DNA of 62,260 nt, the filler included, from Schmidtea nova (lineage: Eukaryota): assembly GCA_044892505.1 (NCBI GenBank). It is 5 parts of 2 records of this genome, joined end to end, with 100 filler letters (N's around TTAATTAATTAA, not from the genome) between each part and the next. Parts side by side here need not be neighbours in the genome. Positions count along the whole stretch, not along the records: positions 7,321 to 16,893 come from CM097882.1; positions 16,994 to 43,322 come from CM097882.1; 3 more parts are not named here. One strand, given 5' to 3'. The position numbers were made by a program, and so were the translations under genes. The stretch's first letter is position 1, and every line of letters starts with the position of its first letter. The notes beneath the pieces are model-generated. The model ran no database searches and was not told the origin of the DNA. It worked only from the letters and a program-made list of their open reading frames with translations. Below, in pieces: positions 7,321-27,243 of this stretch.

Positions 7321-9267
7321 AAGTTTCTTTCACTTTTTGCTAATATTGATTCTTTGTCTGTGAAATTTATTGACTCTTGTCAATTTGTGTCTGAATCATT
7401 AAAAGGTGCTGTAGCAACACTAACATCTTTGCCATTAACATCTTCAGAGTTCAGGGGAACTATAATTAACAGCAAGGGAATTTTCCCTTACGATGTTGCG
7501 ACCTCTTTAGATGTTTTAAGGTCAACATCAGAATTACCACCAATTTGGAAAGGTGTTGACGCAGAGGAATATGAGTTGGCTAAAGTAATATGGCGAGAAA
7601 CATCATGTACTTGCCTTTTGGATTACATGATGGTGTATCTAAAACTTGATGTGTTTTTACTGGCTGACTTTTTTCAGCAATTTCGGGCTAAGAGCATTGC
7701 CCATAACAAACTTGAGCCCCTTAATTTCTTGGGGATTCCCGGTATGAGTTGGAGTTCGGCTTTGATGACTCTTGAGAAACCGATAACATTATTGACTGAC
7801 ATGGAAATGTACAATTTCTTTGAAGGGGGAATTCGTGGGGGGCTTACTTTTGTAAACAAACATTATGTTAAAAGTAGTGCGGATACTGAGTTGTTGTATA
7901 TCGATATCAACAACCTGTATGGATGGGCTTTATCACAAAAGCTACCCGAGGGTAATTTTCAATGGGTGACCGATGATAATTTATAAACTAATTTATTAAT
8001 TGAATGCGCTACGGTAGATCTAAGTTTGCTTAGCTATGGTTATACCATAGAAGTAGATTTAGAAATACCGGCATCTATTCACGATAAATTGGATGATTTT
8101 CCAATTGCCGCTGAAAAGATGTGCGCTCCTTTTTCCAAAGTTAAGAAGCTGTTGCTAACGCACAACTCCAAAAAGAACTACGTTCTTCATTGGAGGCTTC
8201 TACAGATTTTTATTAATTTAGGTGCACTTGTAACAAAAATACATAGGGCAATTAAATACGACCAAAGCTATGTATTTAAAAATTACATTGACACAAACAC
8301 ACAGTTAAGAGCAACATCGACAAGTAAATTAGACAAAAATTACTACAAGTTGCTCAACAACAGTTTGTATGGAAAAACTGTTGAGAACTTGAAAAAACGA
8401 ATTAATCTGCGACTCTGCAATTCAGCACAAAAACTAATCACATATGCCTCAAAACCGGCATTTAGGAAAACCACAAGGATAGACGACGATTTGATTTCGG
8501 TTTTGCTTAGGAAGGAATCAGTGTGTTTGGATAGACCTAGTTACATTGGGCAAACTGTACTAGATTTATCCAAACTGAGAATGTACGAGTTGCAGTACAA
8601 TGAGTTACAAAAATATCGTAATGAATTGAACTGTCAGATTAATATAGTTGCTGGAGACACTGATTCCTTCTTTTTGGAGATTAAAAATTGTAGTCTTGAC
8701 ATTCTTTTAGCTGCTATGATTAGAGACCAGTTGCTTGACACATCCAATTATGACCCTAATCATCCGTTATATAATAGGAACCTTGACTCTGTCATTGGCA
8801 AGTTCAAAGACGAGAGTAAAGGACTATTATATAAGGAGTGGGTGTTCCTGAGGCCTAAATGTTACAGTTTGTTGGGTGATGCGAGTAACATGAAGGCTAA
8901 GGGAGTTGATTTGAAAGATACTGGACTGAGTCATGAGTCGTATCTTGATTGTTATGTGAACAATAGGATTTACAAGGTACCGCAATTTAGAATATGCAGC
9001 AAAAATCATCAGCTATATAGCATTAAGAACAACAAAAAAGCACTGAAAAATATGGACGACAAAAGGTTTTGGGTAACAAAAAATAAAAGTTTAGCCTATG
9101 GCAATTTTCGGGTGGGTGATACCTTTATTGATGAACCAAATGATGATCCAGAACCTTTCAATCAACCAATCTCTCCAGTTTTGAATCAAAATAATGAAGG
9201 AAATGATCCAGACAATCCAGATGATTTTATTGATGATTTTAACAATGATCATAATTATTTTGGTTGA
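7321..9267 (+). pseudogene. polB: Polinton/Maverick protein-primed DNA polymerase B, copy 1 (5' end lost in gap; one in-frame TAA)
   Basis: Motifs GGIRGG, YIDINNLYGWAL (A), KLLNNSLYGKT (B), AGDTDSFF (C), FLRPKCYS. Track ORFs 7354-7986 and 8026-9267 are in one frame, separated only by TAA at 7984-7986. Confidence 0.93.
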
Positions 9268-9852
9268 TTTATTTTCATTCAATAGATTTCTTAATTTATT
9301 TGTTATCGTTTTTTAATTGCTTTTATTTGTAAAATTTTTGTATTAGTTTTTGTAAGTTTTTNNNNNNNNNNNNNNNNNNNNNNNNNNNNNNNNNNNNNNN
9401 NNNNNNNNNNNNNNNNNNNNNNNNNNNNNNNNNNNNNNNNNNNNNNNNNNNNNNNNNNNNNNNNNNNNNNNNNNNNNNNNNNNNNNNNNNNNNNNNNNNN
9501 NNNNNNNNNNNNNNNNNNNNNNNNNNNNNNNNNNNNNNNNNNNNNNNNNNNNNNNNNNNNNNNNNNNNNNNNNNNNNNNNNNNNNNNNNNNNNNNNNNNN
9601 NNNNNNNNNNNNNNNNNNNNNNNNNNNNNNNNNNNNNNNNNNNNNNNNNNNNNNNNNNNNNNNNNNNNNNNNNNNNNNNNNNNNNNNNNNNNNNNNNNNN
9701 NNNNNNNNNNNNNNNNNNNNNNNNNNNNNNNNNNNNNNNNNNNNNNNNNNNNNNNNNNNNNNNNNNNNNNNNNNNNNNNNNNNNNNNNNNNNNNNNNNNN
9801 NNNNNNNNNNNNNNNNNNNNNNNNNNNNNNNNNNNNNNNNNNNNNNNGAGAA

Positions 9853-9952
9853 GAAGAACGCGCGTTCCACGCGCGTTCAATGCGTACTGTTATTTGTCTT
9901 AAACAACAAGAGGAGAAGAACGCGCGTTCCACGCGCGTTCAATGCGTACTGT
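9853..9952. repeat. 38-bp direct repeat x2 containing the palindrome AACGCGCGTT and a second ACGCGCGT
   Basis: Identical GAAGAACGCGCGTTCCACGCGCGTTCAATGCGTACTGT at 9853-9890 and 9915-9952. Confidence 0.9.
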
Positions 9953-10084
9953 GATCCTTATTAAACACTAAGATACGTGTGCAAAAATTATTATTACAAG
10001 TTTTATTAGTCTTTGTTTCGTTGCACATGGATTGCAATGTCTTTGTTGTAATTCAGGTAGGAAATAGAAAAAATTATAACACAC

Positions 10085-10680
10085 ACACACCATAATTACC
10101 TTTCGAATGATATGTATATTATAAGGTTTGAATAAGGATTTGTAACACACACTCGTCTGGCAAATTGTAACACACACACACACTCATCTCACAATTACCT
10201 TTTGTTTGATATACATATTATATAGTTTTAAAAATTTGAACCTTGGACCTTTAAGGGTATGACCATTGTGTGCACCCTTCAATTACCTTTTGTTTGATAC
10301 ATATATTATATAGTTTTTAAAATTTTGAGTCTTGGACCCTTCAAGGGTCGACCACCCACCTTCGAGGGTTGACCATCATACTCAAATCTCAATTACCTTT
10401 TGTTTGATATATAACTTGTAATGTTTAAAAATATTTGAAGGATTTTGACCCCTTGAAGGTTGAGCACCCACCATACACCTTCGAGGGTATGACCAACATA
10501 CTTACCTCTCAAATACCTTTCGAATGATGTATTACACACAAGGTTTGAAAAATCTGAAGGTTTTTGACCCTTTGAAGGTTAAGGACACACCATAGACCCT
10601 CGAGGGTATAACCATTGTGTGCACCTCTCAAAGACCTTTCGAATGATACCCTTGTTTGAAGGTTTGACCTTATTTGACCT
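10085..10680. repeat. ~90-120 bp degenerate tandem repeat x6 carrying imperfect palindromes (Polinton subterminal region)
   Basis: Anchor CAA(T/A)TACCTTT recurs at about 10093, 10192, 10280, 10390, 10510 and 10629. Palindromes GACCCTTCAAGGGTC (10335-10349) and ACCCTCGAGGGT (10596-10607). Confidence 0.8.
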
Positions 10681-10713
10681 TTGGAAATTCAAATTTAAAA
10701 TTTGAATTTGAAA

Positions 10714-25903: not shown

Positions 25904-25941
<38 letters not shown>
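24997..25941 (+). mobile_element. 5'-truncated Penelope-like retroelement: RT thumb, GIY-YIG endonuclease and 3' tail
   Basis: Open frame 24999-25682: RAIRNCS...LQNGYP...LRLPF...NIVYKLSCQKCDATYIGETHRTFRTRLNEH...LASETFFIKKYKPSIN. Tail with hammerhead motif ends in (ATT)n. Antisense to the penton it disrupts. Confidence 0.92.
25773..25813 (+). ncRNA. Minimal type I hammerhead ribozyme motif, U3-A8 variant
   Basis: ACAC-[TTGATAA]-A-GGC-TGT-GCC-[GAAA]-TATT-GTGT. Stem I ACAC/GTGT, stem II GGC/GCC, palindromic AATATT in place of stem III, predicted AUU cleavage after 25805. Confidence 0.7.
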
Positions 25942-25943
<2 letters not shown>

Positions 25944-26390
25944 TTCAAAATTTTTCAAAGTTTTTATTATTTTTCAGACTGAACCGAAAATATAAAAGTT
26001 TTTAAAATTAACTTCATTTAAAAATAAATAAATTAATATAAAATAAATTANNNNNNNNNNNNNNNNNNNNNNNNNNNNNNNNNNNNNNNNNNNNNNNNNN
26101 NNNNNNNNNNNNNNNNNNNNNNNNNNNNNNNNNNNNNNNNNNNNNNNNNNNNNNNNNNNNNNNNNNNNNNNNNNNNNNNNNNNNNNNNNNNNNNNNNNNN
26201 NNNNNNNNNNNNNNNNNNNNNNNNNNNNNNNNNNNNNNNNNNNNNCAAAATAATAAAATTANNNNNNNNNNNNNNNNNNNNNNNNNNNNNNNNNNNNNNN
26301 NNNNNNNNNNNNNNNNNNNNNNNNNNNNNNNNNNNNNNNNNNNNNNNNNNNNNNNNNNNNNNNNNNNNNNNNNNNNNNNNNNNNNNNNNN

Positions 26391-26470
26391 AAAAAAATTT
26401 TTTTTGGGGGGGTTAAAAAGTTTTTTTAGGGGGGTCTGTTCCTGTTCTTGGGCGCTCCCCCTACTCTACT
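26391..26470 (+). mobile_element. Candidate Polinton terminus 2 (minus strand reads 5'-AGTAGAGTAGGGGG)
   Basis: ...GCTCCCCCTACTCTACT ends exactly where pPolB copy 3 similarity begins; resembles the 10970 terminus. Confidence 0.55.
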
Positions 26471-27243
26471 AGTAGTCTCGATAAGAATTATTATGAGCTT
26501 TTAAATAATAGTCTGTACGGAAAACAGTCGAAAATTTGGAGAAAAGAATGAATTTGAGACTGTGTAATACTGAACAGAAAATGATAACATATGCTTCGAA
26601 ACCAACTTTTCAAAGAAGTATCAAGATTGATGATGATTTAATAACTGCCTTACTAAATAAAGAATCTATTTGTTTGAATAGACCTAGTTATATAGGTCAA
26701 TCAGTTTTGGATTTATAGAAACTTCGGATGTATTAACTACAATATCTGGAGTTAGCTAAATATCGAGCACAATTCGGTTGCGAAATAAATATTGTTGCTG
26801 GAGATACCGATAGCTTTTTCTTGGAATGTAAAAATGTTAAATTAGATACATTATTACTGGCAATGGTTAATGATAATCTCTTGGATACATTTAATTATCC
26901 TTCGGAACATCCACTCTTTTCAGGAAAATTGGATTCGATTATCGGAAAGCTCAAGGATGAAAGTAAAGGCGATGGAAATAAAGAATGGGTATTTTTAAGA
27001 CCAAAATGTTACAGTTTGTTAGGGGAAAGAAAGCTTAAAAGCTAAAGAAATAACATTGAATGGTACTGACATCAAAAACAGTCGTATAATAACAACAAAA
27101 GGTTTATAGTACACAATGTCGAATTGGTACACAAAATCATCAATTATTAGTTTCTAACAGTCGAAAGTTGCTTTAACAAATGCCAATGATAAAAGAAATT
27201 AGATTAAAAAGAATAAAAGCCCTGCATATGGGTACTGTGGTGA
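26465..27243 (+). pseudogene. polB: Polinton pPolB copy 3, C-terminal part (motif B to end), degenerate
   Basis: STSSLDKNYYELLNNSLYGK(fs)TVENLEKRMNLRLCN...RPSYIGQSVLDL*..AGDTDSFF...FLRPKCYS...NHQL...DKR..AYG, colinear with copy 1. Several stops and frameshifts. Confidence 0.92.

Follow-up and report, generated by a model that had tools for sequence, protein, structure and literature searches.

Polinton-type genes at the locus

A 62,260-nt stretch of the Schmidtea nova genome (GCA_044892505.1), referred to below as the window, carries between positions 7,321 and 27,243 what are most probably the remains of Polinton/Maverick elements of the adintovirus type. Three copies of the polymerase gene pPolB are found there, as an earlier note on this DNA had proposed, together with a block of virion genes on the minus strand in which two penton-like genes, a small core gene, the major capsid protein (MCP) gene and a protease gene follow one another in the direction of polymerase copy 2 (Table 1). 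Copy 2 and the capsid block are treated as one element (element 2), and copy 1 as element 1. With a probability of about 0.8, these are dead insertions seen in a fragmented assembly, in which none of the copies can work alone, copy 3 is an older relic adjoining element 2, and copy 1 was inserted separately and belongs to a different contig. The relics are probably ordinary decayed Polintons and their nesting partly an effect of the assembly, a short intron in the protease gene being the one probable new trait.

Table 1. Features of the Polinton-type region and its boundaries, in window coordinates
Position	Strand	Feature	Basis
7221..7320	.	Contig separator, 100 bp; artificial join left of copy 1	N-TTAATTAATTAA-N block
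7321..9267	+	pPolB copy 1, C-terminal half, residues 582-1207 of P0082, cut by separator	PF03175, E 1.3e-11
9848..10972	.	Probable right end of element 1, past a sized 486-N gap	Tandem repeats, site clusters, CT run
10973..16893	.	hAT transposase relics and 22-bp satellite, 5.9 kb	Dimer_Tnp_hAT E 0.004, under cut-off
16894..16993	.	Second contig separator, 100 bp; copy 2 runs into the block	N-TTAATTAATTAA-N block
16994..19676	-	pPolB copy 2, N-terminal two thirds, residues 93-792 of P0082, cut by separator	PF03175, E 1.1e-9
19813..20289	+	Predicted three-exon gene, 127 codons, opposite to core genes	Exons 19813-19828, 19877-20025, 20071-20289
21090..21468	-	Adenain-like protease, His/Asp/Gln/Cys intact	Peptidase_C5 (PF00770), E 2.4e-4, at cut-off
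21539..22755	-	Double jelly-roll MCP gene, full span, broken	Homology; predicted fold of the 79%-identical intact homolog P0001
22752..23159	-	Basic 135-aa core protein, intact, two xxGG sites ("pX" of the earlier note)	Between penton and MCP
23152..24174	-	Penton-like gene 2, ~340 codons, one in-frame stop (23833-23835)	58-61% to intact 338-aa P0073
24167..24972	-	Penton-like gene 1, a paralog of gene 2 that lacks ~75 codons at the N-terminus; frame changes at ~24391-24400	Similarity to gene 2
24975..25943	+	5'-truncated insertion: 234-codon frame with GIY-YIG-like C-terminal part, then repeated segment, (TAT)n tail	Open frame, self-similarity
26051..26390	.	Pair of sized gaps in the scaffold, 195 and 129 N, separating element 2 from copy 3	N runs
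26391..26470	.	G-rich junction cutting copy 3 just before motif B	Polinton end or end of another DNA transposon
26465..~27240	+	pPolB copy 3, strongly decayed; C-terminal quarter, from residue 915 of P0082	Similarity to copy 1

Polymerase copies

The residue ranges of the three copies refer to P0082, a 1208-aa polymerase homolog. DNA_pol_B_2 (PF03175) scores above its cut-off in copies 1 and 2. Pfam matches nothing in copy 3, whose identity to copy 1 is 72% along 169 aa. Copies 1 and 2 are 69% identical in their overlapping part. Copy 1 begins at the first base after the separator, retains motifs A, B and C, and is interrupted by a single stop in 649 codons (7984-7986), exactly as previously described. 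Copy 2 comprises a Cys/His-rich N-terminal piece, a vOTU-like Cys/His pair and an exonuclease region with an endonuclease VII-type insert, and is broken by a stop at 18125-18127, a frame change at ~17093-17106 and a probable frame change at ~19149-19160. Its first exonuclease motif (17036-18124, minus strand) also deviates from the one that is near-invariant among related polymerases, which is a further mark of decay. Copy 3, which starts just before motif B, has stops at 26716 and 26734, frame changes at ~26522 and ~27030, and by hand reading about three more lesions further on.

A Cys and a His upstream of the exonuclease are near-invariant in 46 aligned rows, and both are present in copy 2; such a pair is expected of the N-terminal vOTU domain of the polymerase (PMC11161782). 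The endonuclease VII-type (HNH) insert matches Endonuclease_7 (PF02945) below the cut-off (E 1.8e-4). This insert was considered as a marker of the nematode/oomycete pPolB2 Polintons (PMC10748475) and as a hint of a nematode host, and rejected as both: since the same DH[CDN]H motif is carried by 117 of 150 fetched polymerase relatives, it is too widespread to be diagnostic.

The database search returned 6930 polymerase relatives, many of them 1100-1400 aa long, and P0079 and P0080 are 48-54% identical to the window polymerases; a polymerase profile found nothing in PDB. Two separate trees of 27 rows each were built with 25 of the 82 eligible homologs, chosen by score. Copies 1 and 2 (support 100/99) and copies 1 and 3 (97/82) each form a supported pair, sister to P0080. 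The copies thus group as one clade in these sequence trees, which cannot tell copy 2 from copy 3. The contig breaks inside both polymerase genes would be compatible with multicopy repeats.

Capsid block

The gene order penton-penton-core gene-MCP-protease agrees with that given in the earlier note, as does the dense packing at three junctions, where the overlaps are 8 nt (penton 1/penton 2), 8 nt (penton 2/core gene) and 4 nt (core gene/MCP). The claimed 4-8 nt overlap does not extend to MCP and protease, the MCP stop being 32 or 70 nt from two candidate ATGs across a 38-bp tandem duplication. Read-through from MCP into the protease by a simple frameshift fusion is unlikely, as each of the three frames of the spacer contains several stops. 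MCP and protease are fused in P0064, a model that may not be reliable.

The N-terminal frame of the MCP has 64 homologs among 535 candidates, mostly of 406-426 aa. The predicted fold of the best of them, P0001 (79% identical; predicted local distance difference test, pLDDT, 90.9), retrieves the PBCV-1 capsid with Foldseek at E 2.7e-15 (template modelling score, TM, 0.60), and its 271 PDB matches at E<=0.001 are led by PBCV-1 and iridovirus capsids and include virophage capsids. Atlas gives 0.98 to clusters of double jelly-roll (DJR)-like proteins. An MCP profile gave no match among PDB sequences, and Pfam gave only weak DJR-like and Capsid_N matches, in 3 of 60 MCP rows. By this modelled fold, the gene is predicted to encode a double jelly-roll MCP. 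Intact family members of 406-409 aa are present in public data. The earlier note was right to assign the genes to the Polinton/adintovirus type and to a family able to encode virions, and equally right to doubt novelty at the family level.

The 135-aa protein is presumably PW/Cupiennin, a name that we give by position. Its Atlas features reach 0.93 to unnamed clusters, one of which has Preplasmiviricota members, with a low recognition score; the taxa given by Atlas are based on few members. PW/Cupiennin sits between penton and MCP in Beta-type elements and vertebrate Mavericks (PMC8097293).

The two penton-like genes are 34% identical in their mid-part and 64% at the C-terminus. P0073 is 58% identical to gene 2 and 38% to gene 1, and because it is closer to gene 2, the duplication would be older than the split between P0073 and gene 2. 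The top four structural rows for the P0073 model are all capsid chains (EhV-201, mavirus penton, PBCV-1 and Sputnik; Z 7.5-5.4), the mavirus penton aligning over 99 residues with Z 6.9 and a root-mean-square deviation of 3.3. Some results weigh against the assignment: these values are under the caution level of Z 8, the jelly-roll parts of the P0073 model have pLDDT <50 with only the insert being confident, and among viral models Foldseek matched none at E<=0.001, although this is not in itself evidence against the fold. Nothing was found among phage records. We lean towards a single jelly-roll penton near the MCP gene, on the basis of these capsid chains and of a position that fits the described one (PMC4028283).

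Coding state of element 2

A near-complete cassette with few lesions had been proposed at this locus. The capsid block has a complete gene list, but it is not expressible as such: three of its five genes are broken, and an ATPase and an integrase were not found. The MCP is broken by a frame change at ~22039-22045 and a stop at 21884-21886. Together with the stops in penton 2 (23833-23835) and polymerase copy 2 (18125-18127) this makes three in-frame stops in element 2, to which four frame changes are added, one of them only probable. The hand count is thus seven point lesions in ~2150 codons, besides the ~75 N-terminal codons of penton 1 that were lost at the retroelement-like insertion. From its motifs this insertion is probably Penelope-like; its 3' segment recurs elsewhere in the window at 87-99%, and its open frame gave nothing in Pfam or PDB and only a weak match to the UvrC N-terminus (E 0.037).

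Several frameshifts had been placed in homopolymer runs, and element 2 might then be intact in the animal, its breaks being errors of sequencing or assembly. Two of the six frame changes examined do lie near runs of >=5, both at T/G runs in polymerase copy 2; the other four, including both in copy 3, do not. Within element 2 the proportion is two of four, as compared with a background of 11% (p=0.06). An intact element 2 is nonetheless highly improbable, because two frame changes lie away from runs, in-frame stops such as the three found here cannot be homopolymer errors, and a 1-kb insertion has removed the start of penton 1. Recoding offers no way out either: an alternative genetic code was rejected since the homologs have different residues at different stops.

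Pfam was scanned with 180 frames of the window (38 + 142; longer, non-simple frames only). No FtsK/A32-type packaging ATPase was matched in these frames, the elements being truncated, and of three Walker-A-like strings in the six frames none lies in a fitting open frame. There is no rve integrase in 7321-27243, where the elements are cut by contig ends. The rve matches at 35725 and 38134 are 8-11 kb away, one of them beside a reverse transcriptase (RT) fragment, and to judge from their motifs they are presumably of the Gypsy type. ATPase and integrase are missing from the window probably because element 2 was cut by the contig end and by the deletion at the retroelement insertion.

Protease and its predicted intron

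Eight of nine candidates are homologs of the protease, among them P0065 (80% identical). PF00770 is found in six, and the catalytic residues are invariant; the gene product is predicted to be an adenain-like cysteine protease. The first Met of its open frame comes no earlier than position 71. A first exon of 5 nt would start upstream with the ATG at 21468; a GTAAG donor follows two bases past this ATG, and a pyrimidine-rich AG acceptor ends at 21424. The predicted GT-AG intron (21463-21424) is 40 nt long and in phase 2, or 78 nt long with the duplicated ATG further upstream (21506) as start codon. The spliced product would have the N-terminal length of homologs P0066, P0071 and P0072.

The start codon may instead have been lost in decay, the upstream ATG and the GT-AG pair being there by chance in AT-rich DNA. 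The element is decaying and the spacer has a recent 38-bp duplication. Further points against an intron are that its pattern was written after seeing the site, that it is predicted from this DNA alone, the homologs having been compared as protein, and that four of the eight homologs have ordinary Met starts (P0066, 65% identical, P0070, P0071 and P0072), while P0068 fits either an intron or a genuine start. P0065 and P0069 have called starts 11-12 residues late, which may be the choice of a gene caller. Such a loss is nevertheless unlikely, as donor, acceptor, phase and N-terminal length all fit, and the pattern occurs once in the 120,766 strand-bases of the window. In addition, the in-frame residues of P0067, at 64% protein identity, fit the same donor and acceptor one codon closer together (chance ~0.7%), so that the signal is echoed in one of the eight homologs and compatible with two more. 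Two in-phase introns of comparable length are also predicted in a second gene of this element. A 40-nt intron in the protease of this copy is therefore probable, and its conservation in the clade has an even chance of being true. The odds are likewise balanced for an undescribed animal Polinton clade that would combine a conserved short protease intron, a stable diverged penton pair and a spliced accessory gene.

This second gene, the predicted three-exon gene of element 2, has GT-AG introns of 48 and 45 nt. No family of Pfam or NCBIfam matched its exon frames, which were scanned one by one and nearly complete, and it is possibly a cargo or accessory gene. Repeats of 70 and 27 bp lie at 20432-20817, between the protease and polymerase copy 2.

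Number and arrangement of the elements

Fifteen N runs are found in the window. Eight of them pair up around the 12-mer TTAATTAATTAA, and the four resulting 100-bp blocks (44 N, TTAATTAATTAA, 44 N), at 7221, 16894, 43323 and 55358, are identical. This 12-mer between N is described as a contig separator of pseudomolecules (PMC539331). We read the four blocks as joins without sequence support, which divide the window into five segments of 7.2, 9.6, 26.3, 11.9 and 6.8 kb.

Copy 1 belongs to a distinct element because it is only 69% and 72% identical to copies 2 and 3 where it overlaps them, and the locus thus holds two distinct elements or more. No part of the polymerase is common to copies 2 and 3 (P0082 residues 93-792 and 915 to the end), so the case for a third element comes only from the heavier decay of copy 3, four lesions in 188 codons versus six or seven in ~2150 codons of element 2 (p 0.006-0.009, hand counts). 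Copies 2 and 3 might be halves of one rearranged or mis-scaffolded element, as they do not overlap, take the same position in both trees and are separated by sized gaps. This is improbable, since copy 3 is about six times more decayed and the two copies point apart with the capsid block between them. Three elements are probable rather than proven. A 31-bp repeat downstream of copy 3 (27697-27898) could be a subterminal repeat of its element.

The probable end of element 1 lies ~1.7 kb past copy 1 and consists of tandem repeats of 62, 119 and 13/37/50 bp. It holds 10 of the 15 plus-strand TGAGTCA sites and four of the six TGACGTCA sites of the window (TGA(C/G)TCA-type). The repeats finish in a CT-dinucleotide run at ~10972, which is similar to the Maverick end motif (AG)3//(CT)3 (PMC8097293). 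No pair of terminal inverted repeats is found among the self-matches of the window, in which there is one probable end (10972), the other ends being outside the contigs. A frame without database match (10877-11752, minus strand) is cut exactly at the probable end of element 1; by a motif, it resembles the N-terminus of a hAT transposase, which suggests that element 1 was inserted into a hAT element.

The earlier note read the locus as a nest of at least three genomes at an insertion hotspot. In a true nest, an older Polinton (copy 3) would have received element 2 within its polymerase gene, the end of element 2 being at ~26470, and copy 1 would truly be near, at a site attracting the family. 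Copy 3 is indeed abruptly cut at 26465, upstream of which identity to copy 1 drops to background, and three fragments of one clade lie inside 20 kb. The G-rich junction also has an 8-mer in common with the probable end of element 1 (chance ~0.1% in a 20-nt window). Of the three occurrences of this 8-mer in the window, however, the third is at 37973 in a hAT-like end, and part of the junction 8-mer also aligns as polymerase codons. Moreover, element 2 and the junction are 324 N apart, neither the other half of copy 3 nor a target duplication is present, and the window is full of other transposon classes. Between copy 1 and the rest lie an artificial join and 5.9 kb of repeats of other kinds (10973..16893), where none of 228 fetched Polinton-type proteins has a match, and on present evidence copy 1 is therefore not inside elements 2 or 3. 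A true nest is accordingly somewhat unlikely, and the claim of a nest of at least three genomes is not upheld with copy 1 behind a separator and copies 2 and 3 non-overlapping. What has been removed from it is an assembly artefact; dead insertions scattered over unsupported joins are the preferred reading.

Comparison with known elements

The Polinton features present in the remains are a polymerase (PF03175, motifs A, B and C), a double jelly-roll MCP and an adenain-like protease. Weighing against this identity, there is no integrase, ATPase, paired inverted repeats or target duplication (5-8 bp in Polintons), and the defining set is incomplete. From gene order, a weak PF03175 score and motifs that may resemble those of the Beta class, we would tentatively place the element in that class.

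The window is like Polintons and adintoviruses (PMC8502044, PMC4028283) in that the MCP and protease are accompanied by a pPolB with an N-terminal Cys/His protease-like pair, a putative penton one gene upstream of the MCP, tight gene packing and an AG-repeat motif at a probable end. It differs from them in the integrase and ATPase that were not found, in the breakage of all copies and in the probable protease intron. With the Beta-class adintoviruses and vertebrate Mavericks it shares the order minor capsid-PW-major capsid-protease and a weak polymerase match to PF03175, as described for the divergent Beta class (PMC8097293). In most vertebrate elements the polymerase and capsid modules face each other, whereas they are co-directional in the window; a same-strand layout is reported for Xenopus (PMC8097293). 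The window also differs from these elements in having two ~340-aa pentons with a long insert. Duplicate pentons are found in adintoviruses Adinto23690 and Adinto18043, and an enlarged, double-insert penton in Adinto2681 (PMC11071296). Degraded Polintons are common, 96% of vertebrate loci being eroded (PMC8097293).

Intact vertebrate Mavericks are reported to be intronless (PMC8097293). Nematode Mavericks have introns in cargo, their core genes being intronless (Widen et al., 10.1101/2022.07.12.499685), and dinoflagellate eupolintoviral elements carry introners, which are recent transposon insertions (PMC12166617). In adintoviruses, possible hexon-adenain frameshift fusions are mentioned rather than an intron (PMC11071296). 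Introns inside Polinton-type elements are thus already known, and duplicate pentons are on record. Unlike the nematode and dinoflagellate cases, the window has a very short putative intron in a core gene of an animal element, which may be common to diverged relatives. A spliceosomal intron has not been found reported for the protease of any animal Polinton in the accessible parts of the literature, including PMC8097293, PMC10748475, PMC5803895, PMC12220804, PMC11296320, PMC12166617 and Widen et al., a scope outside which Repbase and Kapitonov and Jurka (2006) lie.

An active member of the family would replicate by protein-primed synthesis from inverted ends, as is established for Polintons, and its terminal-protein domain would be released by the vOTU domain (PMC11161782). 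The icosahedral shell would consist of double jelly-roll trimers with penton vertices. The adenain-like protease would mature core proteins at xxGG sites, the ATPase would package the DNA and the rve integrase would insert the element. As predicted from the sequence, the protease would be expressed only after the host spliceosome has removed the 40-nt intron right past the start codon, and the small accessory gene would also be spliced; such splicing of both would tie the element to nuclear host transcription.

If the intron is true, splicing in an animal Polinton extends to a core morphogenesis gene, contrary to statements that core genes are intronless, and there would be direct sequence evidence of nuclear, host-spliced expression. 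The supply of protease, and hence virion maturation, would depend on host splicing, and the spliced RNA would be a simple marker for late-gene activity. Surveys based on open reading frames would miscall such elements as protease-defective, and counts of intact elements that demand a single reading frame are maybe too low.

Surrounding repeats

The window has a G+C content of 27.5%, which together with introns of 40-48 nt would suit several groups of invertebrates. Outside the Polinton genes, Pfam finds hAT, RT, rve and mariner, a pair of RING fingers and a single weak F-box-like match; the frames scanned include no clear host gene. Rfam gave no match in the whole window, and thus no ribozyme. 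The locus is a gene-poor region full of transposons (hAT, Gypsy-type RT and integrase, Penelope-type RT, mariner) in an AT-rich animal genome, and a hotspot specific for Polinton insertion, as had been proposed, is unsupported because the other transposons fill the window as well.

Direct and inverted copies of a dispersed repeat with (TAT)n tails are found at 25771-25943, 45894-46558, 58785-59366 and 14251-14443, and are probably ends of a Penelope-like family. An RT fragment lies at 51609-51899. On the plus strand, a Gypsy-type RT and two integrase fragments (35052-36354 and 38134-38857) are interleaved with a SPIN-type hAT relic (36861-37220), and a Mariner/Mos1-type transposase relic extends over three frames at 59810-60821. 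The 22-bp satellite next to the hAT relics has 29.6 copies at 95% (15384-16034). Frames of 131, 211 and 76 codons without Pfam match are present at 41260-42720 (plus strand), and the one of 211 codons matches PolC weakly (E 0.023) and contains a motif like that of DEDD exonucleases.

Two divergent C3HC4 RING frames, 356-871 (minus strand) and 3882-4412 (plus strand), are 38% identical to each other. Both have AG acceptor-like sites at the 5' end, and the pair flanks a 1.5-kb degenerate repeat. IAP-like genes are known in adintoviruses (PMC8502044), and by analogy the contig with the RING frames may be an accessory region.

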